Virus record (IMG/VR): IMGVR_UViG_2925903241_000002 | Strand: one strand, 5' to 3' | Origin: a virus | Lineage: Duplodnaviria > Heunggongvirae > Uroviricota > Caudoviricetes | Length of the DNA: 16,970 nt | In this document: one piece after another, positions 1 to 16,970 of the stretch | Numbering within the stretch: position 1 is the stretch's first letter | Layout: every line of letters begins with the position of its first letter | The notes under the pieces: model-generated | Database searches by the model: none | Told to the model about the DNA's origin: nothing | The model's input: the letters and a program-made list of their open reading frames with translations, nothing else | Made by a program: the position numbers and the translations under genes

Positions 1-1263
1 ATGAAACTCAACGCTCGCCAGATAGAGACCGCAAAGCCGAAAGAGAAAGCTTATAAAATGGCTGATGGAGGCGGTTTGTATCTTGAGGTCTCCCCTAAAG
101 GTTCTAAGTACTGGCGCATGAAATATCGCCGCCCCTCTGACAAAAAGGAAGATCGACTCGCTTTTGGTGTATACCCGACGGTCACTTTGGCTGAAGCGCG
201 GGGTAAGCGCGATGCAGCAAAGAAATTGTTGTCTCAGGGTATTGACCCCAAAGCTGAGCAAAAGGGGGCACAAGCTGAAATTGAGGGGGCATATTTATTT
301 GAAACTATCGCAAGGCAATGGCACGCAAGTAACCTTACTTGGAGCGAAGATCATAGCCGTCGTGTTCTGCTGACACTTGAGCAGTATATTTTCCCCTCGA
401 TAGGTCAAATCGATGCCAGAACGTTGAGAACCAGCCAGCTTCTCAATCCAATCAAAGCTGTCGATACGGCGGGTAAACATGATGTCGCGCAGCGACTGAT
501 GCAGCGCGTAACCGCAATTATGCGTTTTGGTGTGCAGAATGACCTCCTTGAATCAAATCCTGCATGCGATATGGCTGGAGCGCTTTTAAGCGTTAAAGCA
601 ACCCACCACCCAGCACTACCCCCAAAAAGAATCCCTGAGCTTCTTGAAAGACTATCACGCTATAAAGGGCGACTAATGACACGGCTTGCCGTTGAATTAA
701 CGCTACTCACATTTATACGTTCAAGTGAGATGCGTTTTGCTCGCTGGAGTGAGGTTAACTTTGAACGAAGCGAGTGGACAATACCCGGAATTCGTAAGCC
801 TATTCCCGGCGTAAAACACTCTGAGCGTGGGATGAAGATGAAAACTGAACATATTGTTCCGCTTAGCAAACAAGCATTTGATATTTTTAAACGTTTACAT
901 GCCTTGAGTGGTAAAGGTGAGGTTATATTTCCCAGCGATCATGATCCTAAAAAAGTAATGAGTGAAAATACAGTAAATAACGCCTTACGTGTAATGGGAT
1001 ATGATACGAAAACTGAAGTATGTGGTCATGGGTTTAGAACTATGGCGCGTGGTGCGCTAAGTGAGTCGAAACTATGGAATGATGATGCCATTGAAAGACA
1101 GTTAAGCCACGTTGAACGAAAAAATGTGAAAGGTTCATATATGCATACTTCCGAATATCTTGAAGAAAGAAGATTAATGCTGCAGTGGTGGGCTGATTAT
1201 ATTGATGCTAATAAGAATGGATCTGTCACACCATATGATTTTGCGCGTATGCATGGAAAATAA
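1..1263 (+). CDS. int: P4-type tyrosine integrase (site-specific recombinase); window starts at its ATG, so the attachment site, presumably a tRNA/tmRNA 3' end, lies upstream and out of view
   Basis: 420-aa ORF with the typical P4-integrase N-terminus (AKPKEKAYKMADGGGLYLEVSPKGSKYWRMKYR) and a catalytic-domain-like C-terminus (HGFRTMARGALSE ... SYMHTSEY). Family assignment is from motif recognition, not a search. Confidence 0.9.
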   Translation: MKLNARQIETAKPKEKAYKMADGGGLYLEVSPKGSKYWRMKYRRPSDKKEDRLAFGVYPTVTLAEARGKRDAAKKLLSQGIDPKAEQKGAQAEIEGAYLFETIARQWHASNLTWSEDHSRRVLLTLEQYIFPSIGQIDARTLRTSQLLNPIKAVDTAGKHDVAQRLMQRVTAIMRFGVQNDLLESNPACDMAGALLSVKATHHPALPPKRIPELLERLSRYKGRLMTRLAVELTLLTFIRSSEMRFARWSEVNFERSEWTIPGIRKPIPGVKHSERGMKMKTEHIVPLSKQAFDIFKRLHALSGKGEVIFPSDHDPKKVMSENTVNNALRVMGYDTKTEVCGHGFRTMARGALSESKLWNDDAIERQLSHVERKNVKGSYMHTSEYLEERRLMLQWWADYIDANKNGSVTPYDFARMHGK

Positions 1264-1292
1264 TTACCATTGGGGGCTGCGGAGAGATTTAA

Positions 1293-1931
1293 ATGAATAA
1301 TACTCAATTTGATAATAATTTGTTTTATTTTAATAGGTTAACTTACATAACGCCACACGAAGTGGCGCTTGCTATGAATGGTTTTGACTATGATACCGAA
1401 AATGATGAATTGACTGAGGTTCAATTAAAAGAGGTTATTAGATTAAGAAAGGCAATAACCAGAAATCTACAATTAATTAATGAATATAAAAACGTATCCG
1501 CCACGCAAAAAGTGGAGGCGAACTTATTATTAACTGCCGCTTATATCTTTCAGAGGGAAGGTATTGTACCTGTGGAGATTAAGGAGAGAATTGAGAACGC
1601 ATTACGACAACAGGTAAAAAATAAAGATTGGAGTGATATTCTAATGACGTTAGGAGGAAGTGAATTATATGAAGTTGGTAAAAAATTAAGGAGTAATGGT
1701 AGAGGGCAGTACAGAAAAGATGATGAGGATAATTATAGTTGTAAATTAATTTATTTACTAATTGAATTGCTTAAGAGACATGGAAAGGTAAGTTATAGCG
1801 ATAATAGTGTTATATATAATGATATTGTTTCTTTTTGTAATGAGAATGAGATTCTAATGAAAGGGGTTAAAAAAGCTACGTTTTATAAGAAAATAAAGCT
1901 TGGGAAAGACATTATAAAATACGGAGAGTAA
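1293..1931 (+). CDS. hypothetical protein; AT-rich orphan cargo gene between int and alpA
   Basis: 212-aa ORF with GGAGAG 6 nt upstream of the ATG. Composition is visibly AT-rich against the GC-rich backbone; the protein is charged and helix-prone, with no motif I recognise. Confidence 0.6.
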   Translation: MNNTQFDNNLFYFNRLTYITPHEVALAMNGFDYDTENDELTEVQLKEVIRLRKAITRNLQLINEYKNVSATQKVEANLLLTAAYIFQREGIVPVEIKERIENALRQQVKNKDWSDILMTLGGSELYEVGKKLRSNGRGQYRKDDEDNYSCKLIYLLIELLKRHGKVSYSDNSVIYNDIVSFCNENEILMKGVKKATFYKKIKLGKDIIKYGE

Positions 1932-1996
1932 ATTTATTAATTTTCTGGCTATCTCTCAATAGAAGGGCCACAAGAGGCTCTAACGGGCTATAGGGG

Positions 1997-2044
1997 GTAA
2001 TACGATGTAATATGGTGTAATACTGTGCTAATTCCTAGGTAATA
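1997..2044. repeat. helically phased GTAATA(C/T) direct repeats, candidate protein-binding array
   Basis: GTAATA at 1997, 2007, 2017 and 2039, with CTAATT at 2028, giving a 10-11 bp period in an AT-rich intergenic region upstream of alpA. Confidence 0.4.
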
Positions 2045-2308
2045 TGAATCGTTAAAATGCAATAATACCTTTTGACATATGATTTTTTGATTTTCCATCC
2101 TATCCATATGAATTCTATTGATTTTGTTTTTTTTTGTGCATTTCCTTCTCTCCGTGTTCTTTCATATGAATATTACTTCTTTTTTCAGTGGAGATTATTG
2201 TTTTTCAATAGAATCAATATTTGTCTTAATAGATTCCATTATCACTAGAATCACTTTTTCCCAGTGTTTAAAGTCACCGTGAACTTAAGTAGAACACGGA
2301 GTAACAAG

Positions 2309-2539
2309 ATGGAATATGCAAACAGCTTTTCAGATAATCAGACTCTTATCTCAGCAAAAGAGGTCTTAAGACGCGTTCAGCGTAGCAAGGCATGGCTTTA
2401 CAAACAGCTTGCAAACAATACATTTCCCCGTCCGGTGAAAATAGGAACTCGTGCAATTTCATTTGTTGAAAGCGAAGTGGATCACTGGATTCAAGAGCAA
2501 ATATATGCCTCTCGTGGTGAGCGATATGAAAATCACTAA
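2309..2539 (+). CDS. alpA: AlpA-family (excisionase-like, MerR-type HTH) transcriptional regulator
   Basis: GGAG 8 nt upstream of the ATG at 2309. The sequence LISAKEVLRRVQRSKAWLYKQLANNTFPRPVKIGTRAISFVESEVDHWI fits the AlpA pattern (FP+PVK+G.R...W.E+..W). The upstream ATG at 2264 lacks an RBS. Confidence 0.8.
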   Translation: MEYANSFSDNQTLISAKEVLRRVQRSKAWLYKQLANNTFPRPVKIGTRAISFVESEVDHWIQEQIYASRGERYENH

Positions 2540-2544
2540 TAAAA

Positions 2545-2572
2545 AAGCCCGACATAATGAATTTGTGGGCTT
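2545..2572. terminator. hairpin between the convergent alpA and RHH genes; probably a terminator for the minus-strand gene, possibly bidirectional
   Basis: Stem AAGCCCGACA / TGTGGGCTT with one mismatch. An A-run precedes it on the plus strand, which is a U-run after the stem on the minus strand. Confidence 0.4.
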
Positions 2573-2635
2573 AAAAATATTGTCGCTTACTGAAATTAAC
2601 ATGGAAACAGAGAGAACGTCTGTTGGCTTCTCTAT

Positions 2636-2821
2636 TCAACTACCTTGCTCTGGCTTATTTTTCCTGCGCTGTCGGCGTTTAATCTCGCCTTTTACAGCCG
2701 TAACAATGAATTGCGCTTTCGTTTCTCCATCTTCAAGGTTGCTTTCTAATTCTGCAACTACATCATGTGGGAAACGAGCATTAAGTTGCTGCGACTTGTT
2801 GTTAGTTGAACTCGTTGCCAT
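2636..2821 (-). CDS. small ribbon-helix-helix-like (Arc/CopG-type) DNA-binding protein, putative regulator
   Basis: 61-aa ORF with a strong SD (GAGGAG on the minus strand, about 8 nt before the ATG at 2821). The layout QLNARFPHDVV (beta strand), AELESNL (helix), KAQFIVTAVKGEIKRRQRR (basic helix) fits the RHH fold. Fold assignment is inference. Confidence 0.55.
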   Translation of the reverse strand: MATSSTNNKSQQLNARFPHDVVAELESNLEDGETKAQFIVTAVKGEIKRRQRRKNKPEQGS

Positions 2822-2840
2822 TACTGGATCTCCTCGCGTT

Positions 2841-2933
2841 AGGTGCGATTCAGTATATGCAAAAAAAATGATAATAAAAAGCTTGAAGTGCGATTCACTT
2901 AAGGGTAGCTTTAAAATTAAAGGTGCGATTCAC
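2841..2933. repeat. three direct repeats of (A/G)GTGCGATTCA(C/G) followed by an A-rich tract; candidate operator or origin-like site
   Basis: Copies at 2841-2853, 2886-2898 and 2921-2933, with a degenerate fourth (GTGCGAAGCC) at 2941-2950. They lie just upstream of the RHH gene start, between the divergent RHH gene and the primase operon. Confidence 0.5.
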
Positions 2934-3008
2934 CTTGTGAGTGCGAAGCCCGACAGTGCAGCAACACTAACCGGGCTTCTGACCAATCCGCTAAATGAGG
3001 TAACGAAG

Positions 3009-3185
3009 ATGGCTAAACAGAAGTGTACCTGGTTATTTGCGGCGATCAACCGCAGTCAACGCAATACCCGTCCTGTGATGTTAAGGATCACCGCAGATAA
3101 CGAGCGGTCAGCGCGGCGCAGACTTGCCCCGGACTATGTACTGAGCTTTGCCGGGCGCATTCCCTGCGGAGGTGAACATGCGTAA
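3009..3185 (+). CDS. possible small hypothetical protein (59 aa), first gene of the primase operon
   Basis: ATG at 3009 with GAGG about 9 nt upstream; its stop overlaps the next gene's start. It is embedded in a longer 244-aa ORF that is probably spurious upstream, so this call is weak. Confidence 0.3.
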   Translation: MAKQKCTWLFAAINRSQRNTRPVMLRITADNERSARRRLAPDYVLSFAGRIPCGGEHA

Positions 3186-3537
3186 TTATCCGCACCCCGG
3201 CGAACGCTGGCAGCATGAACGTGGCTGGACGGTCACGATTATCCGATTAATAGAAGCCTCGCCCTCTGTGGCGCTGGTTAATCCTGAATTCAGCTGTGAA
3301 GTGCTGATACGTCATGACAGCGACAACCAGCTTTCTTCCTGCCCTCTGGCATGGTTTGAACAGCGGTATACGCGCCTGTTTGATGTACCGCTCTTGAAGC
3401 CTGCACCAGCTCCTGCTGGCGGTAGTGGTTCCGGCCCGCTGACACTGCATCCGTCTGTGCTATTTATCCGCTGGCGGGAGCGTAGCATACGGCGTTCTGC
3501 TGAGCCTGACGACGGTCACTATTCAAAGTTTCTCTGA
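3178..3537 (+). CDS. hypothetical protein
   Basis: ATG at 3178 with GGAGG 6-9 nt upstream; GC-rich like the primase operon. The N-terminal 70 aa look globular and the C-terminus is low complexity, so the true stop may be misjudged. Confidence 0.55.
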   Translation: MRNYPHPGERWQHERGWTVTIIRLIEASPSVALVNPEFSCEVLIRHDSDNQLSSCPLAWFEQRYTRLFDVPLLKPAPAPAGGSGSGPLTLHPSVLFIRWRERSIRRSAEPDDGHYSKFL

Positions 3538-3568
3538 CAAAATACCGCTGAAAACGGAGTAATCCACG

Positions 3569-3853
3569 ATGAATATTTCAAACGGGCACAACGGTGCTCA
3601 GGGCCACACTTTGCCTGAAAAACACAATACCGGTGCTTTTGCCTATGGGTTGTCAGAGGACAGTTTCGGAAAACTGACCCGCGCAAGAAATGCCTGCGAC
3701 ATGCTCCAGCTTCTCTTTTCTGAATACCCGTCTCAGGCCGGAGCACTGGACGCTGGCTGTGCGCATGGTGTCGCCGCGCTGATGGAGTACCTGCTGGCAG
3801 ATTTGACGGATATTGCACACAGCTGCGCACTGATTGAAGGAGGTGCCAGATGA
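3569..3853 (+). CDS. hypothetical protein
   Basis: ACGGAG 9 nt upstream of the ATG; 94 aa; its stop overlaps the next start (ATGA). Confidence 0.6.
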   Translation: MNISNGHNGAQGHTLPEKHNTGAFAYGLSEDSFGKLTRARNACDMLQLLFSEYPSQAGALDAGCAHGVAALMEYLLADLTDIAHSCALIEGGAR

Positions 3854-4233
3854 ACCAGCCGCAGGTTTCCATTTTCCCGGCAGAAATGACCACCGCGCTT
3901 TACCGGCGGGCTATTGCTTCAGCATGGCGGCAGAAAATGCTGAACGAAACTGGCAGTGATCAGTATGGTCCGCACAGCCTGACGGTGGAGCGTATTGAAA
4001 TGGCCATTGCGCTGCATATCGAGTGCGTACTGATTAACGAGTACGGCGAAGCACAGGGCGCCGCTGCCGCGCTGGCACTGCTGACTGACATGCTGGAGCC
4101 GTCACTGCTGACCGCGCCGCCGGTACTGACCGCGCGCGGCTGTGAAGTGATGGCGGAGATGTACCGCACGCTTCCGGCGGCCTTTGATGACTTCTGCAGT
4201 ACCGGTGTGACGTTGTATCAGGGGGAAGTATGA
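3850..4233 (+). CDS. hypothetical protein
   Basis: GAAGGAGG upstream; 127 aa; translationally coupled to both neighbours through ATGA overlaps at 3850 and 4230. Confidence 0.6.
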   Translation: MNQPQVSIFPAEMTTALYRRAIASAWRQKMLNETGSDQYGPHSLTVERIEMAIALHIECVLINEYGEAQGAAAALALLTDMLEPSLLTAPPVLTARGCEVMAEMYRTLPAAFDDFCSTGVTLYQGEV

Positions 4234-6902
4234 CAATACAGACGGTTACGCAGATTTCAGCCGCCGCACGGGGGAAATGGCCCGTTATTCTCCAGATGCT
4301 GCGTATTGATGTACCTGAAAACGGCAGGCACGGTCCCTGCCCGAAATGTGGGGGCAAGGATCGTTTTCGCCTTGATGACCTTGACGGGCGCGGGACGTGG
4401 ATCTGCAGCCAGTGTGGCAATGGTGACGGTCTGGATCTGGTTAAGCTCGTAACCGGTTACAGCGTCAGAAAGGCTGCGCAGGAGGTGGCGCAGGTGCTTA
4501 ATGTGCCGGATGTGCAGGAACTGCCTGTTAAGCCTGCCAGAAAAAAAGCCCCTAAACGCGACATGGGTCTTACCGTGGCGGCGCTGATGAAAGAGAGCCA
4601 CACGGGAGAAAGCGCCTATCTGACAGGAAAAGGGTTCGCCGGATACCCGGCCTCTCTGACCGGAAGCGTGCAGCATATCAGCGGTAAGGATTTTCCTGCC
4701 GGTTCCCTGCTGTTACCACTCACGACCAACACCGGAGCCGTGACTGGTGCACAGCTTATCGCCCCGACGGGTGAAAAAAGCATACTGCCCGGCAGCACGA
4801 TGAAAGGCGCGTTTGTGTCGCTCAGCCCGTTACCGTCTGAACCACCGGTACAGGTGGTGATTACCGAAGGTTACGCTACGGCGCTGACGGTAAGTCAGCT
4901 CACTGCCGGATGCGTAGTGGCTGCCATATCTGCGGGCAACCTGCCCAATGTGGCGCAGTCGCTGCGGGCACGCTGGCCTGAGGTAAAAATTATCATCGCC
5001 GGTGATAACGATTTTCAGGACGGGGGTGAGAATCCCGGCAGAGCCTTTGCTGAACGGGCGGCAAAAGCTGTTGGCGGCTGGATGACGCTGCCACCGGGAG
5101 AGATTAAGGCCGACTGGAATGACTTCCATCGGGAGCACGGTATTACCCGCGCCCGTGAAGCCTTTCGTAACGGTCTGGTGCTGTGCGGGGAGGGCCGCAC
5201 GCAACTGCCGCACGGGTTCCGTCTTACCCAGGAATATCTCTGGTATGAAAAGCAGGTACAGCGCAACGGTGAGACGGAGATCCAGAACGTCAAAATATGC
5301 AGCCCGCTGCGCGTGACGGCAATCACCTGCGATGCCGATGGCGGTAACTTCGGACGACTGCTGGAATGGGAAGATACGTGGGGTGAGTGTCGCCGCTGGG
5401 CGATGCCGATGGAAATGCTGAGCGGCAGTGGTGAGGAACTGCGCCGGGTATTGCTGGTTAACGGGCTGTCTTATATCAGCACCACCGGTGAGGCACGCGC
5501 ACGCCTGATGGAATATATCTCACTGTGTAAACCGGAACGCCGCGTGACCTGCGTCAGTCGTACTGGCTGGCATGGTCAGGTTTACGTCCTGCAGGATGAG
5601 GTCAGCGGTGAAGGTGCAGAGGGTGTCATTCTCCAGACCACTTCCGTGCAGGGGCGTGATTTCCGCGTGTCGGGCACAACAGAGGAATGGCGGGAGCATG
5701 TATCCCGCTACTGTACCGGCAACTCCCGCGTGGCATTTGCTGTCAGCCTGGCCTTTGCTGCACCACTGTTACGGCTGGTTGGTATGGACGGCGGCGGCTA
5801 CCACCTCAAAGGGGAATCGACAGACGGTAAGACCACCACCATGAAAGCGGCAACCTCCGTCTGCGGCGGGCCTGACTACTGGCAGACATGGCGGGCCACC
5901 GGCAACGCGCTGGAGGGATGCGCCAGCCGCCGCAACGATGCCGCCATGATGCTTGATGAGATCCGGGAAGTTGACGGACGCGAGGCAGGCAATATCGCCT
6001 ACATGCTGGCAAACGGTCAGGGCAAGGGCCGTGCCGGTACGGACGGTGAGCTGCGTACCCGTAAGCATTGGCGCCTGTTGTTCTTTTCAACTGGCGAGTT
6101 GTCTCTGACCGAACATGCGGCAAAGGCCGGTGAGCGTACTTTTGCCGGGATGGAAGTCAGGATGATCCAGATCCCCAGCGATTCCGGGAAGTTTGGCGTT
6201 TTTGAGGAGCTGCACGGCTTCGACAGCGGCAAGGCTCTGGCAGAGCATCTTGAATGGGCCACGTCCTGCTACTACGGTTCGCCGTTCCGGGAGTGGCTGA
6301 AAGCACTGACCGCTGATCTTAACGGACTAACGGCACAGGCAAAATCGCTGATGAAGGAATATGCTGCCGCCCTGACTCCGAAAGATGCAGGCAATCAGGT
6401 GGGCCGGGCTGTGAACCGCTTTGCTCTGGTGGCGATGGCAGGTGAACTGGCAACCCGTCTGGGTATCACCGGCTGGCCTGAGGGTGAAGCACTGCGGGCA
6501 ACCCGCGTCTGCCTGAACGCATGGCTGAAAGATCGCGGGCACACCGCCAATCAGGAAGATATCGCCGCACTGGAGCAGGTTCGCAGTTTCTTTACCGCGA
6601 ATCAGTACAGCCGCTTTGCAGACTGGTATGACGAGCGCAACCGCCCCGGCAATATGGTGGGCTGGCGCAGGGTGGAGAAAGGCAGTACCGCGCAGGGCAC
6701 GGAAGCTGTCACTACGTTCTATGTCATGCCGTCCGGCTGGAAAGAAATCTGCAGGGGATTTGACCCGCGCAAGGTGGCGCGTCTGTGCGCAGATCGTGGA
6801 TACCTGCTGCCCTCCACTGATGGCAAACTCCAGACAACCATTCGCCCGCCAGAGATGAATCCCCGCAGGCTCTATGTCTTCAACAGCGAGGTGCCGGGTT
6901 AA
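4230..6902 (+). CDS. P4 alpha-like primase-helicase (zinc-binding domain, Toprim, P-loop NTPase)
   Basis: 890 aa. N-terminal CPKCGG...CSQCGNGDG zinc ribbon; Toprim-like EGYATALT ... IIAGDNDF; Walker A GESTDGKTT; GGGGAAG RBS. Confidence 0.9.
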   Translation: MTIQTVTQISAAARGKWPVILQMLRIDVPENGRHGPCPKCGGKDRFRLDDLDGRGTWICSQCGNGDGLDLVKLVTGYSVRKAAQEVAQVLNVPDVQELPVKPARKKAPKRDMGLTVAALMKESHTGESAYLTGKGFAGYPASLTGSVQHISGKDFPAGSLLLPLTTNTGAVTGAQLIAPTGEKSILPGSTMKGAFVSLSPLPSEPPVQVVITEGYATALTVSQLTAGCVVAAISAGNLPNVAQSLRARWPEVKIIIAGDNDFQDGGENPGRAFAERAAKAVGGWMTLPPGEIKADWNDFHREHGITRAREAFRNGLVLCGEGRTQLPHGFRLTQEYLWYEKQVQRNGETEIQNVKICSPLRVTAITCDADGGNFGRLLEWEDTWGECRRWAMPMEMLSGSGEELRRVLLVNGLSYISTTGEARARLMEYISLCKPERRVTCVSRTGWHGQVYVLQDEVSGEGAEGVILQTTSVQGRDFRVSGTTEEWREHVSRYCTGNSRVAFAVSLAFAAPLLRLVGMDGGGYHLKGESTDGKTTTMKAATSVCGGPDYWQTWRATGNALEGCASRRNDAAMMLDEIREVDGREAGNIAYMLANGQGKGRAGTDGELRTRKHWRLLFFSTGELSLTEHAAKAGERTFAGMEVRMIQIPSDSGKFGVFEELHGFDSGKALAEHLEWATSCYYGSPFREWLKALTADLNGLTAQAKSLMKEYAAALTPKDAGNQVGRAVNRFALVAMAGELATRLGITGWPEGEALRATRVCLNAWLKDRGHTANQEDIAALEQVRSFFTANQYSRFADWYDERNRPGNMVGWRRVEKGSTAQGTEAVTTFYVMPSGWKEICRGFDPRKVARLCADRGYLLPSTDGKLQTTIRPPEMNPRRLYVFNSEVPG

Positions 6903-6936
6903 GGCTTTGCGTGAGTCTTATTTATTAAGGGTAACA

Positions 6937-7124
6937 GGTGAAACAGGTGGAACAACCGTATTTTACAGGGCTGAACCTGTTCCACCTTCTGAAATAGTGA
7001 GGTGGAACAGATGTAACGCCAGCCAATCCGCTGTTCCACCTTGTTACCCGCGATGTTCCACCGGTGCAGTGTATATAAATGCCTTATAAAACAAAGCTGT
7101 AACACATGTTTCACCTGTTCCACC
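6937..7124. repeat. iteron cluster: eight copies of TGTTCCACC or its variant TGTTTCACC in both orientations; candidate alpha-binding cis replication region (crr/ori-like)
   Basis: Forward copies at 6978-6986, 7032-7040, 7054-7062, 7107-7115 (variant) and 7116-7124; reverse copies at 6937-6945 (variant), 6946-6954 and 7001-7009. The cluster lies directly downstream of the primase gene. P4 ori and crr carry the similar octamer TGTTCACC, as I recall it. Confidence 0.6.
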
Positions 7125-7212
7125 GCATCAGGGACATAAAGCAGACTGAAACAGAGGGCATTTTTATCTGGCTGGCTTTCATAGCCACGTCTGAATAACC
7201 GCAAGCGTCCGT

Positions 7213-7230
7213 TGTGCCAGCCACCACACA
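7213..7230 (+). promoter_or_regulatory. TGT-N12-ACA dyad upstream of the sid operon; candidate Ogr/Delta activator site of a P2/P4-type late promoter
   Basis: TGT at 7213-7215 and ACA at 7228-7230 with a 12-nt spacer, centred about 80 bp before the sid ATG. A second dyad at 7251-7268 sits too close to the start codon to be the activator site. Confidence 0.4.
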
Positions 7231-7302
7231 CTGAGCACCGATAGTGTGCTTGTGTCAGCCACGACACAATTGACGTAACGAACCAACCCGACAGGAGAAG
7301 TC

Positions 7303-8046
7303 ATGAACAACACCGCAGTGAATAACAACCTTTCCACTTTTCCGGCTGTAACGCAGCGGGCACTGGAAACCATGAACACAGCCAGAAACGCATGGCTTGA
7401 AGCACGTCGTCAGCAGAAAGCGGCAGCGGATAATATTGCGACAATCCGCCAGCGTCGCGCTGAAATGGAAGCCACGACGAACACACTGAATGAGGAGTGG
7501 CGCACGCTGTTTCGTGAAAGTCAGGGCGTGGTCTCAAAGGAAATGAAAAAACTGCGCACGGAAATTGCGCTGGGACGAGAAACGCTTGAGGATTTTGATG
7601 AGCTGCTGGCGGCTCAGGAAAGCGAAAATGCACTTTTGCCGCAGAAAGCTGCAGAATTAGCCGGAAAGTATATCCACGCGCATAACATTCTTGTGGATAT
7701 TCGCGCAAAACAAATCTGGGAGGATTTTATGCAGTCGCATGGAAAAGCGCTTATTCAGACGCTGAGCCTGCTTAAATCCACAATGGGCCGGGAAGCCAGT
7801 GCCGTTGTGGGTGTGGTGAATTCAGTTAATGACCCGGACACAGTGCTGAAAGACTTTATTCATAAACATATCACCAGACCGGCTCTGGCTAACGATGCGA
7901 TGCCTGAGCAGGACCCGGTGTTTAAACTGGCGGGAGTTGCCCCGGATTATGCGGCGCGTCTGGATTTCAGTAATCAACTCTCTCCGGCAGCTATGCATAA
8001 AATTAAGGTTCGTCAGGAACTTGCTGAGAAGGAGAAAGCAGTATGA
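7303..8046 (+). CDS. sid: Sid-like capsid size determination (external scaffold) protein
   Basis: 247 aa, helical and Ala/Glu-rich. Position after alpha and before psu matches P4. The segment EEWRTLFRESQGVVSKEMKKLR resembles my recollection of P4 Sid. Confidence 0.7.
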   Translation: MNNTAVNNNLSTFPAVTQRALETMNTARNAWLEARRQQKAAADNIATIRQRRAEMEATTNTLNEEWRTLFRESQGVVSKEMKKLRTEIALGRETLEDFDELLAAQESENALLPQKAAELAGKYIHAHNILVDIRAKQIWEDFMQSHGKALIQTLSLLKSTMGREASAVVGVVNSVNDPDTVLKDFIHKHITRPALANDAMPEQDPVFKLAGVAPDYAARLDFSNQLSPAAMHKIKVRQELAEKEKAV

Positions 8047-8594
8047 CGGCCCGAGGCACGCCTGACCAGGCACTTACCAGTTTTCGGAATGCCCGTATTC
8101 TGTGGGCCGGACATAATGAGAGCCGAAAAGCCGTTGAACAACAGATAACATCTCTCCTCGCTGCCACAGAAAAACCAGCAGATTATGCCCGACAGCTCGA
8201 ATTACTGCGGGAACGTCTGGATGTGCTGAAATGGCAAATTAACTGTGCTGCGCGCGAATGCATTTACTCGCAGCATTTACTGATGGAGGCCTGCACAGAA
8301 GCCGCTCTCAGCAATTTTATGCAGGCGAATGGGGCAGCCCTGACATCTGCACTGGCTCCGTTCCTGAAGGGGCGCGGAGGGGTTGACGTTGCGTCCCGTA
8401 TATTACGCAGTGCTCTGGTTCGCCAGCTGGCAATAACACCGCCTGAAATTGCCGGGGATTATCGTGAGATCCTGGATGAATCCGGTTTGATGCCTGACCC
8501 CGGGATGATTCGTGATTGCCAGGGTTCTTACACCCCGGCACAACATCTGCGTTTTCAGCAACGCCTGAATGACATTAACGATATACAGGAGTGA
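8043..8594 (+). CDS. psu: Psu-like polarity suppression / capsid decoration protein
   Basis: 183 aa with an ATGA overlap to sid. The segments LKWQINCAARECIYSQHLL, FMQANGAALTSALAPFL and YTPAQHLRFQQRLN resemble recalled P4 Psu motifs. Confidence 0.7.
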   Translation: MTARGTPDQALTSFRNARILWAGHNESRKAVEQQITSLLAATEKPADYARQLELLRERLDVLKWQINCAARECIYSQHLLMEACTEAALSNFMQANGAALTSALAPFLKGRGGVDVASRILRSALVRQLAITPPEIAGDYREILDESGLMPDPGMIRDCQGSYTPAQHLRFQQRLNDINDIQE

Positions 8595-8599
8595 TATTA

Positions 8600-8872
8600 A
8601 TGGCACTTAAATGTCCGGAATGCGGTACAGTTGCACACGCCAGAACAGCAGCCTATGAAGCTCCGTCAGTTAAACGCTCGTGGTATCAGTGCCAGAATCT
8701 GGAATGTTCCTGCACATTTACGGCACTGGAGAGTGTGGATAAGATAATCATGAAACCCCGGCGCAATGAACAGCTATCAGACAAAGCACAATCCCCGGAA
8801 AAACAACAGAAAACGCTCAATCGCTATGGCTCCGCGTCAAAACTGTCAAGCCGTCAGCAGATTCCTGTCTGA
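8600..8872 (+). CDS. Ogr/Delta-family zinc-finger late transcription activator
   Basis: C-x2-C-x22-C-x4-C (CPECG ... CQNLECSC) at the N-terminus; GGAG 8 nt before the ATG at 8600. The in-frame GTG at 8591 is less likely. Confidence 0.85.
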   Translation: MALKCPECGTVAHARTAAYEAPSVKRSWYQCQNLECSCTFTALESVDKIIMKPRRNEQLSDKAQSPEKQQKTLNRYGSASKLSSRQQIPV

Positions 8873-8892
8873 TTAGAAAGAACGCCCACGTA

Positions 8893-8919
8893 ATCCCGGT
8901 CCAGTACCGGGATTTTTTA
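8893..8919 (+). terminator. rho-independent terminator of the sid-psu-ogr late operon
   Basis: Stem ATCCCGGT / ACCGGGAT (8 bp), loop CCAGT, followed by TTTTTT. Confidence 0.7.
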
Positions 8920-9244
8920 CCCCCTTTTCCTGGCTGACATGAGAGCGCATGAGTGCATGTCTATGGCGCATGAAAACGCATGAGTCTTATGCACCATTTT
9001 TGACGAGAAAACCCTTGTGTGCTGGCTTCTGAGACGATTAATGAGGTGCATGAAAACCAGTCTGTTAAGCGAAGCGGGCAGGCGTGCGGGGCTGCCCGCA
9101 CTAACGGTGATAATTGTGATGTTGCGATATCAAGAGAGATATAAGAATGCTGTATTCAATAAGGTATTGCTTTCAATTGTTAGATTTATTTTTGTTTAAA
9201 TGTCAATGGTTTAGGTGGTTGCTGGCAGCCAGTACGCTTACTTA

Positions 9245-9272
9245 TTGAAAATCTCGCATCTTTTGCTATCCT
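9245..9272 (+). promoter_or_regulatory. candidate sigma70 promoter for the retron ncRNA/operon
   Basis: TTGAAA at 9245-9250, 16-nt spacer, TATCCT at 9267-9272, directly upstream of the structured ncRNA region. Confidence 0.35.
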
Positions 9273-9274
9273 AA

Positions 9275-9450
9275 CCCTACCTTTACGCGCGGGATAACAG
9301 GTTTATCCTTGTCGGGCGTTTCGCCAGACACTAATTTATTGTGGACATTTAGGGTTGCGCTTTAGCACTTTCAGCAAGATCCTTCATGCCACTGCGTTCC
9401 ATTCAGGATCTTGCTGAAAGTCTAAAGCGCATCCTTTAGGTAAAGGGGTC
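9275..9450 (+). ncRNA. retron msr-msd-like non-coding RNA (ends approximate)
   Basis: Two short hairpins (GGATAA-CAGGT-TTATCC at 9292-9308; GGCG-TTT-CGCC at 9315-9325), then a long imperfect inverted repeat: GCGCTTTAGCACTTTCAGCAAGATCC at 9357-9382 pairing with GGATCTTGCTGAAAGTCTAAAGCGC at 9406-9430 (one mismatch, about 22-nt loop). CCTTTAC at 9279 and GTAAAGG at 9440 are candidate a1/a2. It sits immediately upstream of an effector-RT gene pair. Confidence 0.6.
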
Positions 9451-9499
9451 GAAGGTGGCTGGTTAGCCACCTTTTCTTTTGGAGTAGGGGGTCACAAGG

Positions 9500-10486
9500 G
9501 TGAGTGATTCTGCATATATGAATGCATTACAAGAGCAGTTTGGAGATTTGAAATATTCAAATTTCACTGTTCAGTTCATGCCTCCTATTATTTTTGTTTG
9601 TGGTGGGCCGATAAATTCCACTCCAATGAGTGTACGAGACCACATATTTACTTATGTAGCAGGCCACAAACCTGAATTGTCAGATTCTCTTATTTTAGCT
9701 GAGAACTTCCATGACTACTTCAGAGAGGGGGCATATTCAGATCTAATGAGCTTTGAAGATGATATTGCAAATATTTCAACATTAGTTGTTATCTGTTTAG
9801 AAAGTGCAGGTTCGTTAGTTGAGCTTGGATTATTTGTTAATAGGAAGTCTCTAGCTCAAAAATTGCATGTAGTCGCACCATTTGAGGAGATTGAGGGAAA
9901 TGAACGAAAAAATATTCCTGCTAGATCTTCTTTTATATATTTAGGCCCTTTGGAGTATCTTAAAAAAATAGATGAGGCCTCAGTATCAGTTTATCCATGG
10001 CCAAAATCGGATCGTATGAAATATGATGAGGTTGAGCTTATCTACCATGATATTCATTCTAGATTAAAACGTGTAAAAAAAACGGAGCGATATAACCCTG
10101 AAAATACTGGGCACCTAGCTATATTGATTTACGAAATAATCCTTTTATCAGAACCAATCAAGAAAAGCGAAATAGAGTGGGCACTATACTGTATGGATAT
10201 AGATGTGCCACAAAAAATAATAACTCGTTTACTTTATTTGCTTGAAAAGATGAAATTAACCTCATCATTATCTTACAGTGGTACAGACTACTTCTATTCC
10301 CGAGGGCATAGAGAGAGTAAACTTAAATTTGGTATCAGTGCTAGTGGTAAAATAAAGGATTCTATGAATATTAAGGTTGCAATCCGACAATCTTACTTAA
10401 GTATGGATGCTAAAGATATGGACGAGACTGCAAAAAAAAGGAAAAATGCTCTAAATCAAATCAATATCGTGCGTGGAGGGGCTTAG
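9500..10486 (+). CDS. retron effector candidate: nucleoside 2-deoxyribosyltransferase-like N-terminal domain with a possible winged-helix C-terminal domain
   Basis: 328 aa, AT-rich. PPIIFVCGGP and VVICLESAGSLVELGLF resemble the NDT/Rossmann-like fold with a conserved Glu. The start is uncertain: GTG at 9500 or ATG at 9518, neither with a strong SD. The stop lies 1 nt before the RT start. Confidence 0.65.
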   Translation: MSDSAYMNALQEQFGDLKYSNFTVQFMPPIIFVCGGPINSTPMSVRDHIFTYVAGHKPELSDSLILAENFHDYFREGAYSDLMSFEDDIANISTLVVICLESAGSLVELGLFVNRKSLAQKLHVVAPFEEIEGNERKNIPARSSFIYLGPLEYLKKIDEASVSVYPWPKSDRMKYDEVELIYHDIHSRLKRVKKTERYNPENTGHLAILIYEIILLSEPIKKSEIEWALYCMDIDVPQKIITRLLYLLEKMKLTSSLSYSGTDYFYSRGHRESKLKFGISASGKIKDSMNIKVAIRQSYLSMDAKDMDETAKKRKNALNQINIVRGGA

Positions 10487-10487
10487 A

Positions 10488-11420
10488 ATGGAGTTGCTAA
10501 GTTATATTTCAAAAGGTCTTTTTCTTAGCGAAGAAGAGGCTAAAAGGTATATTGTTACTATTCCACGCAGATATAAAATTTATCCTATCGCCAAAAGAAA
10601 TGGTAATGGATATAGATTAATTGCACAACCAGCTAGGCAAGTTAAAGCCTTACAGAAGGTAGTAATCAATCATATGTTGGCTAATTTGAAAGTTCATGAA
10701 AATGCTTTCGCTTATGAAGCCGATAAAAGTATTAGATCTAATGCGTTAATGCATTGTAATAATGATTATTTGCTTAAAATGGATTTTAAAAACTTTTTTA
10801 TGAGTATCAAACCCCATAATCTTTTATCTGTCTTAAAAGATTATGGCGTTGAACTAACTGATACTGATATCTTTGTTCTTAAAAATCTTTTCTTCTGGAA
10901 GTTAAGAAGAAATAGCCCGTTACGCCTAAGTGTTGGAGCACCTTCTTCTCCCATTATTTCAAATACAGTAATGTATTTCTTCGATGAGGAAATATCGAAA
11001 AGATGCAAGGATTTGGGTATTACCTACTCAAGGTATGCTGATGATCTTACGTTTAGCACCAAAGTCAAAGGAGCTTTATTTGATGTTCCTAAGTTAGTAA
11101 GGGAAGTTCTTAACGTAGTAAATCTTAGGAATATTAAAATAAACCATGAGAAAACAGTTTTTACCTCAAGGAAGTTTAATAGACATGTAACTGGTGTAAC
11201 TATTACGACTGATGGTTATTTGTCTTTAGGTCGTGATAGAAAGCGTCTTTTAAGAAGTAAAATACATTATTATGTGTGTGGGGTTTTATCTGAGAAAGAA
11301 ATTCTAACCCTTAAAGGAGAATTAGGCTATGCGAAATTTATTGAACATAAATTCTTTGCCTCCATGATTAAGAAATATGGGGATGATGTAATCAGCGAAA
11401 TTTCAAAATATGAAATTTAA
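10488..11420 (+). CDS. retron-type reverse transcriptase
   Basis: GGAGG 8 nt upstream of the ATG at 10488. RT motifs are present: IYPIAKRNGNGYRLIAQP (motifs 1-2), LKMDFKNFFMSI (3), SVGAPSSPIISN (4), YSRYADDLTFS (5, YADD). NRHVTGVTI carries the retron-characteristic VTG motif, and about 310 aa is typical retron RT size. Confidence 0.85.
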   Translation: MELLSYISKGLFLSEEEAKRYIVTIPRRYKIYPIAKRNGNGYRLIAQPARQVKALQKVVINHMLANLKVHENAFAYEADKSIRSNALMHCNNDYLLKMDFKNFFMSIKPHNLLSVLKDYGVELTDTDIFVLKNLFFWKLRRNSPLRLSVGAPSSPIISNTVMYFFDEEISKRCKDLGITYSRYADDLTFSTKVKGALFDVPKLVREVLNVVNLRNIKINHEKTVFTSRKFNRHVTGVTITTDGYLSLGRDRKRLLRSKIHYYVCGVLSEKEILTLKGELGYAKFIEHKFFASMIKKYGDDVISEISKYEI

Positions 11421-11690
11421 TAGCTTGTTGTCCTAATAAATCAGCATGACTTTATCTAGCTTGCGCAAGGTTGGTTCAGAGGTTTGGTTGTTCTGGTTAG
11501 GCTCTGTAAGACGGAACCTAACTAGGCAACTCTATCTTGCTAATTCATTTATTGTGCTAGTTAGCAACAATAAGATTTTGTTGGGGGCACAAAATGGGGC
11601 ACAAGTCATAAGCTATAAAATTTTTATCATCATGTTCAATGAGTTATATAGTTATTCTATTCCGGCCTTCGCACCATCGGAACATCAATA

Positions 11691-11713
11691 GACGTCAACG
11701 GACGTCTTTTTTT
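11691..11713 (+). terminator. rho-independent terminator closing the retron module
   Basis: GACGTC-AACG-GACGTC hairpin followed by TTTTTTT. Confidence 0.7.
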
Positions 11714-11874
11714 GTGCCTAAAATCCAGTATCCGCAAGGCTTTCCTCGCTTTTTCACTCAACCTAAGTCAACCTGATTCAATCTACATCAACTTACTGAT
11801 GCGGGTACAACTGCGGGTATTTCCCGGTTCGATAATGTTTGTACCCACACAGAACCCTTGAAAGGATACTCATC

Positions 11875-12976
11875 ATGGCTCTGAGTGATGTGAAGGTTCG
11901 TTCGGCTAAGCCTGAAGCAAAAGCCTATAAGCTGACCGACGGTGAAGGCATGGTTTTGCTGGTTCACCCTAACGGCTCCAAATACTGGCGGCTACGTTAT
12001 CGCTTTGGCGGTAAAGAGAAGATGCTGGCATTGGGGAAATACCCCGAAGTGTCGTTGGCGGATGCCAGGGCACGCCGGGATGAGGCTCGTAAGCTTTTAG
12101 CTAATGGTGTCGATCCCAGTGAAAACAAGAAAGCTGTTAAGGTAGAACAGGAACAAGAGGCGATAACGTTGAAGTAGTCGCCAGAGACTGGCACGCCAGC
12201 AATCAGAAGTGGTCGGCATCGCATAGCGCTCGTGTTTTGAAAAGTCTGGAGGATAATCTCTTTACTGCTATCGGTAAGCGGAACATTGCGGAACTGAAGA
12301 CGCGGGATCTTCTTGTACCCATTAAAGCAGTCGAGTCATCCGGGCGGCTCGAAGTTGCCGCCCGTTTACAGCAGCGTACTACCGCGATTATGCGCTTTGC
12401 CGTTCAGAGCGGCTTAATCGACTACAACCCCGCGCAAGAGATTGCAGGTGCGGTTGCTACGGCGAAAAGACAGCACCGTGCAGCTCTTGAACTGAACCGT
12501 ATACCTGAATTACTTCATCGCATAGATCACTATTCTGGCAGACCGTTAACTCGGCTGGCGGTTGAACTCACTTTATTGGTTTTCATCCGTTCGAGCGAGC
12601 TGCATTTTGCCCGCTGGTCAGAAGTAGATTTTGAAACGGCTATGTGGACAATCCCAGGTGAGCGTGAGCAACTGGAAGGAGTCAAGCATTCTCAGCGTGG
12701 CTCGAAGATGCGGACACCACACCTTGTGCCTTTGTCGCGGCAGGCCCTAAGTATTTTGGAAAAGATCAAAAGCATGAGCGGAAATTGAGAGCTGATTTTT
12801 GTGGGCGATCACGATCCACGTAAGCCGATGAGTGAGAATACGGTGAACAAGGCTTTGCGCGTAATGGGGTATGACACGAAGGTCGAGGTTTGTGGGCATG
12901 GCTTCAGGACGATGGCTTGTAGTTCGTTGATTGAGTCGGGATTATGGTCGAGGGATGCGGTAGAGCGGCAGATGAG
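11875..12976 (+). pseudogene. second P4-type integrase, inactivated by a frameshift, a nonsense codon and 3' truncation by the IS element
   Basis: AAGGA RBS and ATG at 11875. The translation parallels the first integrase across three frames: a frame break near 12160-12177, an in-frame TGA at 12786-12788 where the first integrase has Gly, and an end at the IS inverted repeat at 12977. Confidence 0.8.
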
Positions 12977-13018
12977 TGAACCGCCCCGGGTTTCCTGGAG
13001 AGTGTTTTATCTGTGAAC

Positions 13019-15761
<2,743 letters not shown>

Positions 15762-16175
15762 CGTAAGTAAAATCAGCCACCCACAGCTGGTCAGGTCGTT
15801 CTGCCACGAACTGACGGTTTACGCGGTCGCCTGCGGCAACGGCTTTCCGGCTGATGGTCGTACGGACCTTTTTACCCCGGAGAACACCGGCAAGTCCCAT
15901 AACCGCCATGAGACGTGCCACAGTGCATCTGGCCACTCTGATACCTTCCCGTAACAACTGACGCCAGACTTTACGCACACCGTATACCTTGTGATTTTCA
16001 TCGTATACGCGCTGTATCTCTTTCTTCAGCCAGTCATCGCGCTGCGCACGGGCACTGCGTTTATCCGGATGATGTCGCTGTTGCTGACAGTGGTAATACG
16101 TTGACGGGGCAATATGCAGTTCGCTGCATAGCGGTCCGACCCCGTACTGCTCACGCAGCTTATCCAGCAGTGGCA

Positions 16176-16179
<4 letters not shown>
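15762..16179 (-). pseudogene. IS3-family transposase OrfB, 5' exon (interrupted by the group II intron after ...LWVADFTY)
   Basis: The reading frame runs into intron sequence (GVPGVQ ...) at 15761; the intron begins GTGTG on the minus strand. Confidence 0.8.

Positions 16180-16970
<791 letters not shown>

Follow-up and report, generated by a model that had tools for sequence, protein, structure and literature searches.

A very probable copy of Retron-Eco9 carried as cargo by a P4-like satellite at the leuX tRNA gene of Escherichia coli

Organization of the retron module

The window, meaning the whole stretch of DNA that was analysed, comprises 16,970 nucleotides of the IMG/VR virus record IMGVR_UViG_2925903241_000002. 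Positions 9245-11420 were found to contain a promoter-like site, a structured msr-msd non-coding RNA (ncRNA), a gene for an effector with NDT-like and winged-helix domains, and a gene for a retron reverse transcriptase (RT; Table 1). An earlier note, made from the sequence alone, had described the locus as a three-part retron (ncRNA, NDT-like effector and RT) carried as cargo by a P4-like satellite, and a complete, intact copy of such a module was indeed present. The effector and RT genes are closely spaced on the + strand, with the ATG of the RT gene 1 base past the effector stop codon and a GGAGG sequence upstream. The GC fractions of the two genes are 0.35 and 0.32, respectively, and the module as a whole has approximately 35% GC, compared with 0.51-0.59 for the satellite backbone, in keeping with the two tightly packed AT-rich genes that had been noticed behind the ncRNA. 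The module is located 3' of the sid-psu-delta genes; 11420 is the last position of the retron proper, and the cargo continues to approximately 11580. Of 5,426 complete E. coli genomes, 156 carry at least 80% of the stretch 9200-11720, and the effector and RT genes are both named 'retron St85 family' by PGAP.

The promoter-like site gives a predicted transcription start at approximately 9279, which coincides with the start of the msr match described below. A terminator-like hairpin separates the ncRNA from the effector gene, and a counterpart stands behind the ncRNA in the retron carried by a sister satellite (L004). This hairpin is probably an attenuator, predicted to set the ratio of ncRNA to mRNA. 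Two short open reading frames, at 9017-9199 (60 amino acids, no Pfam match) and 11446-11691 (81 amino acids, no Pfam or PADLOC match), overlap att or cos-like DNA and were taken as spurious.

Table 1. Features of the retron module and its surroundings (positions in the window).
Feature	Position	Strand	Description
cos-like sequence, left slot edge	9069-9102		Last backbone sequence common to sister satellites
Promoter-like site, predicted	9245-9272	+	TTGAAA, 16 nt spacer, TG-extended TATCCT; 9/12 matches in consensus scan
a1 inverted repeat	9274-9286	+	Pairs with a2 in minimum-free-energy fold
msr	9279-9350	+	Two stem-loops
Candidate branching G, predicted	9287	+	Directly after a1; aligns to G of 'UUAGCG' consensus of Rfam msr
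msd, msDNA template	9351-9439	+	From inverted repeats I1/I2 and fold; long hairpin 9351-9436
a2 inverted repeat	9440-9449	+	Pairs with a1 in fold
Terminator-like hairpin with T-rich tail	9451-9474	+	Between ncRNA and effector gene; 10-pair stem followed by TCTTTTGG
Effector/toxin gene, assigned as rcaT-Eco9	9500 (GTG) or 9518 (ATG) to 10486	+	328 or 322 amino acids
Retron RT gene, assigned as rrtT-Eco9	10488-11420	+	310 amino acids
YADD motif	11034-11045	+	RT residues 183-186
VTG motif (region Y)	11187-11195	+	RT residues 234-236
Two direct integrase arm-type repeats	11584-11606	+	GGGGGCACAA and TGGGGCACAA; satellite att site, right cargo limit
attR core	11661-11677	+	Imperfect copy of tRNA-Leu (leuX) 3' end; satellite right end, from three-way alignment of empty site, attL and attR
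Chromosomal leuX intrinsic terminator, not retron	11690-11707	+	Hairpin and T7 run; 270 nt past RT stop codon

The msr-msd non-coding RNA

The folding energy of the region 9268-9450 was calculated as -75.1 kcal/mol, against -44.8 +/- 4.2 kcal/mol for 200 shuffled sequences (z = -7.2), and no shuffle folded as well. Two long inverted repeats, I1 (9353-9388) and I2 (9400-9434), lie within it, so the structured ncRNA with a long inverted repeat that had been recognised upstream of the genes was borne out. The a1/a2 pairing in the fold joins 9281-9286 to 9440-9445, and 9274-9277 to 9446-9449, and 25 of 30 related loci have an exact a1/a2 complement at the corresponding position. The msr includes a conserved hairpin with a UUU loop, GUC-GGGCG-UUU-CGCC-A-GAC, at 9310-9330, and the msd stem includes a GATC/GATC duplex (9378-9381 and 9407-9410). 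The features by which a retron ncRNA is recognised, namely a1/a2 repeats, a candidate branching G, msr stem-loops and an msd hairpin beside an RT operon, were all found. The msDNA is likely to be approximately 80-90 nt long, as predicted from the template hairpin, rather than the 70-75 nt originally proposed.

The covariance-model check suggested in the earlier note gave a divided answer. The Rfam msr family (RF00170), the seed of which consists mostly of other retron types, matched 9279-9345 over its full length and with significance (E = 3e-6), yet the score of 42.2 bits is below the gathering score of 52. Similarly, Rfam STnc400 (RF02058) matched 9350-9486, a stretch that takes in the terminator-like hairpin, with 55.4 bits (E = 4.5e-10), below its gathering score of 80. 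A purpose-built covariance model matched 57 of 71 distant loci, always approximately 1.1 kb upstream of the RT gene and on the same strand. Since 59 of these 71 loci encode an effector homologue directly before the RT and 57 contain the msr match, the three-part layout is conserved. The msr stems were also observed to covary: across 59 sequences, 12 of the 15 pairs were changed on both sides, and 89.7% of the cells in the alignment were paired, compared with 25-47% when the partners were slid.

The effector and the reverse transcriptase

The effector consists of an N-terminal NDT-like N-glycosidase domain and a C-terminal winged-helix domain. It was matched by the PADLOC model NDT_II-A (1.8e-87), which agrees with the NDT-like N terminus, as in type II-A effectors, that had been read from the sequence. 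Both proteins passed the NCBIfam models of the St85/Sen2 family (NF038232/NF038233), with the effector scoring 223.8 against a cut-off of 100. In the terms of the Mestre et al. classification the module is type II-A, as a separate effector with NDT-like and DNA-binding parts is encoded beside the RT.

The only significant full-length structural match for the effector was the effector of Retron-Eco1 (PDB 8QBK, 8QBL and 7XJG), with E of approximately 1e-10 and a TM score of 0.52. The two proteins are 18% identical and share an ES-GS--ELG motif, with an invariant glutamate equivalent to Eco1 E106. Because of this fold match and this glutamate, the effector may act as an N-glycosidase on NAD(P)+ or a nucleotide, and its E102 (numbered from the ATG at 9518) may be the catalytic residue.

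The RT is compact and has the YADD and VTG motifs, as the earlier note had pointed out, and it scored well above the cut-offs of retron models (Table 1). It was matched by Pfam RVT_1 (1.5e-27), by PADLOC RT_II-A (7.9e-121) and by NCBIfam retron_St85_RT with 333.9 bits against a cut-off of 235, and its closest solved structures are retron RTs. A tblastn search of phages recovered only relatives of at most 41% identity.

The P4-like satellite, its cargo slot and the leuX site

The satellite encodes an integrase (Arm-DNA-bind_3 and Phage_integrase domains), Phage_AlpA, a protein with Zn-ribbon, Toprim and DUF927 domains, two Psu-family proteins (Sid-like and Psu) and Ogr_Delta. The core genes of a P4-like satellite (integrase, AlpA, alpha primase-helicase, Sid, Psu and Delta) were therefore all present, together with PHROG Psu-like matches. 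From attL to attR the satellite measures approximately 11.9 kb, and it is integrated at the leuX tRNA gene of E. coli.

The retron occupies a variable, cos-adjacent cargo slot that extends from 9103 to approximately 11580 behind sid-psu-delta, which upholds the placement of the module after the late operon in a variable cargo position. The left border was defined with L077, the same satellite with other cargo, in which homology runs from 1 to 9102 at 98.5% and then ends; homology ends at 9093-9108 in hundreds of other P4-like elements. At this edge, 20 of 24 bases agree between 9069-9091 and the P4 cos junction, with a score within the shuffle range, and the exact P2/P4 cos 19-mer is missing from the window even when up to three mismatches are allowed. 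A cos site near the left slot edge is thus only suggested by the sequence. At the right border, the same pair of arm-type repeats precedes attR in L077; two copies of the motif were also seen in the interval from leuX to int, and int itself contains it at 265 and 286. An open reading frame, ORF212 (1293-1931), was considered as a second hotspot gene and rejected, as it forms a fixed block with the satellite integrase in 204 genomes.

Satellite-free genomes match the window from 11661 onward only, and a tRNA-Leu is annotated there. Owing to a 1-nt deletion in the attR core, no exact repeat of 12 nt or longer from the leuX region was found, and the repeat was recovered by alignment. The strong terminator that had been thought to close the module is present as a hairpin and T run at 11690-11707; however, it belongs to leuX and lies outside the satellite. 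It is identical to the sequence immediately following leuX at the empty site of strain O111:H2 12A, and is host DNA beyond attR, displaced by the satellite insertion.

The same backbone was found with three different cargoes, namely the retron described here, another St85-family retron with RipA (L004), and an AAA ATPase pair (L077). The defence hotspot described previously in P4-like satellites (Rousset et al. 2022, PMC9122126) is a variable slot of approximately 2.5 kb beside cos, after psu/delta, and its more than 300 arrangements include retrons.

Identity of the retron

The sequence at 9245-11420 is very probably Retron-Eco9 or an essentially identical allele, that is, a type II-A, St85/Sen2-family retron composed of msr-msd, rcaT and rrtT. 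Retron-Eco9 is the name given to rcaT/rrtT from E. coli NILS-16, described by Bobonis et al. in two 2020 preprints (10.1101/2020.06.22.160168, 10.1101/2020.06.22.160242) and in Nature in 2022. Seven primers used to clone the NILS-16 retron (JB368-371 and JB390-392) are colinear with the window, at 9501, 10474, 9251, 11443, 9578, 10488 and 11381. The sites fit the stated roles of the primers (msr start, rcaT start and end, +107 nt of rcaT, and RT start and end), with JB391, JB392 and JB371 placed at the RT start, at the RT end and just beyond the RT end, respectively. The differences consist of dropouts of 1-2 bases, in a primer text that was machine-read, and one real mismatch, in JB392. In addition, a 2026 paper names four serines of RcaT-Eco9, Ser155, Ser181, Ser254 and Ser292 (PMC13645617), and all four positions are serine in the present effector when numbered from the ATG at 9518, in register and without indels over 292 residues.

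This comparison with the NILS-16 element covered approximately 190 nt of primer sequence and four residue positions. The locus could in principle be a diverged Eco9 allele, with a different msd or specificity, and the true mismatch in JB392 and the Salmonella and Klebsiella members of the 90% cluster would be compatible with this. Such an allele is nevertheless improbable, given that every primer site agrees, including those within msr and at +107 nt of rcaT, that the residue numbering holds throughout, and that the E. coli genomes at the top of the matches listed carry the module with 100% identity, with at least 80% of the query present in 156.

The earlier note had been struck by a resemblance to Ec73 and had left identity with it open. 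Ec73 (Retron-Eco3 of retronphage phiR73) is likewise type II-A, with an accessory open reading frame between msr-msd and the RT in a P4-like element, and the msd hairpin core of approximately 74 nt superficially recalls the '73' of its name. The phage collection searched does not include phiR73, so Ec73 was examined through published primer sequences; in that collection no DNA match to the retron or to sid-psu-delta was found in either near or distant mode. Neither TAGTATTTTAGCTATGCCCGTCGTT nor ATCGACGTGCTCAAGTAGGTTT, the primer-derived msd flanks of Ec73, could be matched to the window, the RT termini differ (RIYSLIDS... and ...NLHNKGE in Ec73, MELLSYIS... and ...ISKYEI here), and phiR73 is found at selC whereas the present element is at leuX. 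That the module is Ec73 or a close variant was therefore rejected as scarcely credible.

A non-retron RT (group II intron, Abi or DRT) with an unrelated hairpin upstream is hardly conceivable: a real group II intron does lie 2 kb away in the window and the RT gives weak cross-matches to group II and Drt models, but these are far under their cut-offs (45.5 versus 300 for group II intron RT and 38 versus 390 for Drt2, with Drt3a also far below), whereas the retron models are exceeded widely, the nearest solved structures are retron RTs, and the msr stands at a conserved distance upstream in relatives, with covariation.

Proposed mechanism

Retron RTs bind the msr stem-loop, prime from the 2'-OH of the branching G and copy the msd into msDNA. 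At the present locus, a single transcript would be driven by the predicted promoter near 9245-9272, and the hairpin at 9451-9474 would probably pass only part of transcription on to both genes. Priming would take place at about G9287, and the msd would be copied leftward from about 9439 to give an msDNA of roughly 80-90 nt.

In the published work, Eco9 is described as a tripartite toxin-antitoxin and abortive-infection system in which the RT-msDNA complex restrains the RcaT toxin (10.1101/2020.06.22.160168, 10.1101/2020.06.22.160242, PMC13645617). According to the same sources, production and function of the msDNA require RNase H and exonuclease VII, and the RT-msDNA complex binds and neutralises RcaT, with the RT providing pairing specificity and the msDNA being required for antitoxin activity. 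The toxin is freed, and infection aborted, by phage functions that degrade or modify the msDNA. The triggers given there are RecE for Eco9 and Dam methylation of the GATC duplex for Sen2; Eco9 is stated to defend against T7 at low multiplicity of infection, and the T7 kinase to counter it by phosphorylation of RcaT.

Killing by RcaT may proceed through N-glycosidase action on NAD(P)+ or a nucleotide, judging from the Eco1 fold match and the glutamate. By analogy with Sen2, the GATC/GATC duplex in the msd suggests that Eco9 may also be a sensor of phage Dam-type methyltransferases. The native operon, finally, may be devoid of a strong terminator of its own and use the attenuator hairpin at 9451-9474 and the displaced leuX terminator. 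That all three hold together, with E102 of RcaT-Eco9 in an Eco1-like NAD(P)+/nucleotide N-glycosidase, sensing of Dam-type methyltransferases and an operon lacking its own strong terminator, is a tentative proposal that we would sooner doubt than adopt. If Eco1-like activity, Dam sensing or a borrowed terminator were true, the classification of the module would be unchanged.

Comparison with known systems

The element is already known, as an experimentally characterised anti-phage retron that is named by a standard annotation pipeline. The finding is real but ordinary, and carriage of retrons in the P4-like cos-adjacent hotspot has already been published. What was gained consists of corrections: the retron is assigned to Eco9 and not Ec73, the leuX terminator lies outside the satellite, the slot borders are 9103 and approximately 11580, and the stretch was found in 156 of 5,426 genomes. 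The locus also provides a clean natural case of one satellite backbone with three cargo systems. A native P4-like satellite context at leuX is not mentioned in the available parts of the Eco9 papers.

The effector of Retron-Eco1 (Ec86) is an N-glycosidase and NAD(P)+ hydrolase with the glutamate E106 (PMC12673091). Retron-Eco1 is found in a P2-like prophage and differs from the present module in gene order and in msDNA. Retron-Eco3 (Ec73) of phiR73 shares with it an effector with NDT-like and DNA-binding parts, and a P4-like, P2-dependent satellite as carrier. The present backbone has all its genes from int to delta on the same strand, with attP separating the slot from int, whereas in P4 itself and the EDL933 element int comes after the slot and is encoded on the other strand.

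The NCBIfam families matched by both proteins were founded on Retron-Sen2 (St85; STM3845/STM3846 of Salmonella Typhimurium). A genome-contig scan with rather too specific search patterns did not recover the Salmonella Sen2 itself. The three-part layout of Sen2 is the same as here, the msd stem of both retrons contains a GATC duplex, and the msd region of Sen2 appears to be Rfam STnc400. The published identity between Sen2 and Eco9 is 43% for RcaT, 49% for the RT, 85% for msr and 58% for msd (10.1101/2020.06.22.160168). The cognate RT-toxin pairs of the two retrons are not interchangeable. Relative to Retron-Eco9, no difference was detected in the compared stretches beyond the primer differences noted above, and the present module has the same gene order, msr-msd, rcaT and RT, and belongs to the same family.

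Identity of the retron

The retron in the window is Retron-Eco9, as compared over seven primer sites and four residues. Bobonis et al. (bioRxiv 10.1101/2020.06.22.160168) give in their supplement the primers used for cloning Retron-Eco9 from E. coli NILS-16, and 7 of 7 mapped to the window, colinear and each at exactly its stated role, with differences confined to one mismatch and to 1-2-base dropouts of the sort that machine reading of PDFs typically leaves. Independently of the primers, Ser155, Ser181, Ser254 and Ser292 of RcaT-Eco9, named in a 2026 paper (PMC13645617), were all found as serines in the window effector when it was numbered from the ATG at 9518.

The earlier note had likened the layout to that of Ec73 (Retron-Eco3, from the retronphage phiR73), but the element is not Ec73. 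The published msd flanks of Ec73, …TAGTATTTTAGCTATGCCCGTCGTT and ATCGACGTGCTCAAGTAGGTTT… (primers in the supplement of PMC8563936), have no match in the window, its RT ends read RIYSLIDS… and …NLHNKGE (PMC8563936) against an MELLSYIS start and ISKYEI end here, and phiR73 lies at selC whereas the window element lies at leuX. The retron is already characterised and already annotated, the PGAP names being "retron St85 family effector protein" and "retron St85 family RNA-directed DNA polymerase", and it is not a new variant. A 9200-11720 query was covered to at least 80% in 156 of the 5,426 complete genomes of E. coli; identity was 100% in the top-listed E. coli matches, many of which come from carbapenem-resistant clinical isolates.

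Features of the window, with the Retron-Eco9 cloning primers (JB numbers) at their mapped positions
Feature	Position	Strand	Remarks
P4-type integrase (int)	1-1263		
AT-rich ORF	1293-1931	+	212 aa, 31% GC; directly after integrase
AlpA, then small P4-like genes	between the 1293-1931 ORF and alpha		
Alpha-type primase-helicase	4230-6902		zinc ribbon, Toprim, DUF927
Sid-like protein	7303-8046		
Psu	8043-8594		
Delta	8591-8872		
Promoter-like site	9245-9272		TTGAAA-16-(TG)TATCCT
JB370	9251		msr start
a1	9274-9286		paired with a2 in fold
Candidate branching G	9287		first unpaired G past a1; aligned to G of msr consensus
msr stem-loop	9310-9330		one of two; 9-bp stem, UUU loop
msd hairpin	9351-9436		
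Long inverted repeats	9353-9388 and 9400-9434		
Paired GATC/GATC	9378-9381 and 9407-9410		in msd stem
a2	9440-9449		paired with a1 in fold
Terminator-like hairpin	9451-9474		10-bp stem, T-rich tail; between ncRNA and effector start codon
Effector gene (rcaT)	GTG 9500 or ATG 9518 to 10486	+	
JB368	9501		rcaT start
JB390	9578-9606		+107 nt of rcaT
JB369	10474-10491		rcaT end
RT gene (rrtT)	10488-11420	+	1-nt gap after effector; GGAGG before ATG
JB391	10488		RT start
JB392	11381-11420		RT end
JB371	11443-11466		beyond RT
Two integrase arm-type repeats	11584-11606		right border; motif also between leuX and int, and within int
attR core	11661-11677		imperfect copy of leuX 3' end, 1-nt deletion
Hairpin and T-run	11690-11707		host leuX terminator
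Integrase pseudogene	11875-13013		P4-type, frameshifted; begins just past displaced leuX end; own GCGGGTA-type repeats upstream
IS3-family transposase fragment	13019-13498		truncated; adjoins group II intron
Group II intron	13492-15105	-	Rfam Intron_gpII 64.9 bits at 13492-13578; ltrA-type RT/maturase ORF 13582-15105
IS629-like (IS3 family) transposase pseudogene	15763-16502	-	ALIL frameshift pseudoknot, Rfam RF01497, 120 bits, 16105-16221

Reverse transcriptase and effector

The features listed in the earlier note were all present, namely the inverted repeat and fold of the ncRNA, two packed AT-rich genes, the YADD and VTG motifs and a hairpin with a T-run, and its classification of the element, as a retron of type II-A carried by a P4-like satellite, was correct. 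PADLOC assigned the RT to RT_II-A (7.9e-121) and the effector to NDT_II-A (1.8e-87). The RT carries YADD at residues 183-186 and VTG at residues 234-236, and matched Pfam RVT_1 and NCBIfam retron_St85_RT (333.9 bits, cut-off 235). The clustering with non-retron RTs that had been named as a refutation was not seen: the group II intron RT model scored 45.5 (cut-off 300), Drt2 and Drt3a were also far under their cut-offs, and the closest solved structures were those of retron RTs.

The effector matched NCBIfam STM3845_fam (223.8 bits, cut-off 100). Its start is ambiguous: the GTG start (328 aa) is used by PGAP and by the Bobonis cloning primer, with a G-rich Shine-Dalgarno-like run upstream; the ATG start (322 aa) fits the residue numbers in the 2026 T7-kinase paper (PMC13645617). 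An AlphaFold2 model of the effector (100 homologues as input; pLDDT 90.5) was compared with the PDB using Foldseek, and the sole significant matches were to the Retron-Eco1 (Ec86) effector (8QBK, 8QBL and 7XJG; E about 1e-10, TM 0.52, full length), of which 8QBL is described as "inactive effector E106A". The effector motif ESAGSLVELG (9800-9829) aligned with PESPGSFTELG of Eco1, and E102, numbered from ATG 9518, is therefore the equivalent of Eco1 E106. E102, FxCGG and SFIxLG were invariant across the 100 effector homologues.

Structure and conservation of the ncRNA

The fold of 9268-9450 reached -75.1 kcal/mol, compared with -44.8 +/- 4.2 in 200 shuffles, none of which was as good (z = -7.2). 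Rfam msr (RF00170) gave a significant full-length match at 9279-9345 (E = 3e-6), its 42.2 bits falling short of the gathering score, which is 52. A Salmonella "sRNA" entered in Rfam as 'Gammaproteobacterial sRNA', STnc400 (RF02058), matched 9350-9486 (E = 4.5e-10; 55.4 bits against a gathering score of 80), covering the msd hairpin and the terminator-like hairpin after it. STnc400 is probably a retron msd and not an independent sRNA, because the family consensus resembles the msd and trailing hairpin of St85-type retrons.

An msr covariance model built on the window together with one other E. coli retron found a match at 57 of 71 RT loci of distant relatives (30-49% RT identity), in every case on the RT strand and about 1.1 kb upstream of the RT. 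An effector homologue lay between msr and RT at 59 of the 71 loci, and thus the three-part layout is conserved well outside E. coli. In the msr alignment, which was fitted to the covariance model and so is biased towards the structure, 12 of 15 pairs had both-sided changes and 89.7% of cells were paired, against 25-47% with slid partners. Most of the 30 loci examined for it had an exact a1/a2 complement 57-82 nt beyond msr. The retron of a sister satellite in E. coli MLI114 (at thrW) has conserved msr flanks, an msd stem wholly different in sequence with its pairing kept, and an equivalent hairpin 3' of its ncRNA.

The satellite and its cargo slot

The window is identical to a chromosomal segment of E. 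coli strain 51008369SK1 and starts 164 nt past tRNA-Leu (leuX). GC content is about 35% in the retron region and 51-59% in the backbone. The 1293-1931 ORF had no match in Pfam, PADLOC or NCBIfam, its sole match being phrog_30524 (labelled unknown function); with the integrase and AlpA it forms a fixed block in 204 complete E. coli genomes, and hence this position is not a variable slot. Over 1-8872, all genes lie on one strand, from int by way of alpha to sid, psu and delta; the slot and then att come after delta, with att placed between the cargo slot and int. In P4 and the EDL933 element, unlike the window, alpha and sid are divergent, and int comes after the slot in convergent orientation, on the other strand; alpha is 890 aa in the window backbone versus 777 aa in P4.

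The same satellite in E. coli 130119, inserted likewise at leuX, was 98.5% identical to the window over 1-9102, with homology returning only at 11666, and carries (at 19985-23069) an AAA-family ATPase (745 aa) and a 280-aa hypothetical protein in place of the retron. The MLI114 satellite has a near-identical alpA-to-delta backbone (98.6% to window 2934-9095), and its slot (10961-13561) holds another St85-family retron (effector 38% and RT 43% identical) and a convergent RipA-family membrane protein gene. Homology of hundreds of other P4-like elements ends at 9093-9108. The final shared bases, 9069-9091, resemble the cos junction of P4 (20 of 24 bases agree), a likeness that alone is not above chance. 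The cos-adjacent hotspot of P4-like satellites, with retrons among its contents, has already been described (Rousset et al., PMC9122126).

The strong terminator that the earlier note placed at the close of the retron module does exist, but it lies beyond attR. Satellite-free genomes match the window from 11661, immediately past tRNA-Leu, which makes the hairpin host DNA and the terminator of leuX; the empty site in strain O111:H2 12A has the same hairpin and T-run immediately after the tRNA. The insertion has displaced this native terminator, which is neither a retron nor a satellite feature. Between the RT stop and attR, no terminator comparable to this hairpin was found. Past attR comes an older, decayed island with a second P4-type integrase (frameshifted), fragments of IS elements and a group II intron. 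The integrase pseudogene appears to be what remains of this earlier island at leuX, and the satellite would therefore be a tandem insertion.

Proposed mechanism and comparison with known retrons

From the sequence, transcription would start from the promoter at 9245-9272, the branching G would be that at 9287, and the msDNA would be about 80-90 nt. The 9451-9474 hairpin could act as an attenuator, and may keep the ncRNA more abundant than the toxin/RT mRNA. Published work on Eco9 (bioRxiv 10.1101/2020.06.22.160168 and 10.1101/2020.06.22.160242; PMC13645617) shows that rcaT is toxic alone while the whole retron is non-toxic, that RNase H and exonuclease VII are required for msDNA production and antitoxin function, that specificity comes from the cognate RT, which msDNA of either retron can activate, that RecE is a trigger and that RacC blocks RcaT. 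The same work describes defence against T7 when the multiplicity of infection is low, and its disarming by the T7 kinase via RcaT phosphorylation.

In Eco1 the effector acts as an N-glycosidase on NAD(P)+, which it hydrolyses, and methylation of the msDNA activates it (PMC12673091); RcaT may be an Eco1-like N-glycosidase using E102. In Retron-Sen2 of Salmonella Typhimurium, Dam triggers the toxin by methylating a GATC duplex of msDNA-Sen2 (10.1101/2020.06.22.160242). The GATC/GATC duplex of the Eco9 msd (9378-9381, 9407-9410) is a Dam site of the kind through which Retron-Sen2 is triggered, and Eco9 could likewise be sensitive to Dam.
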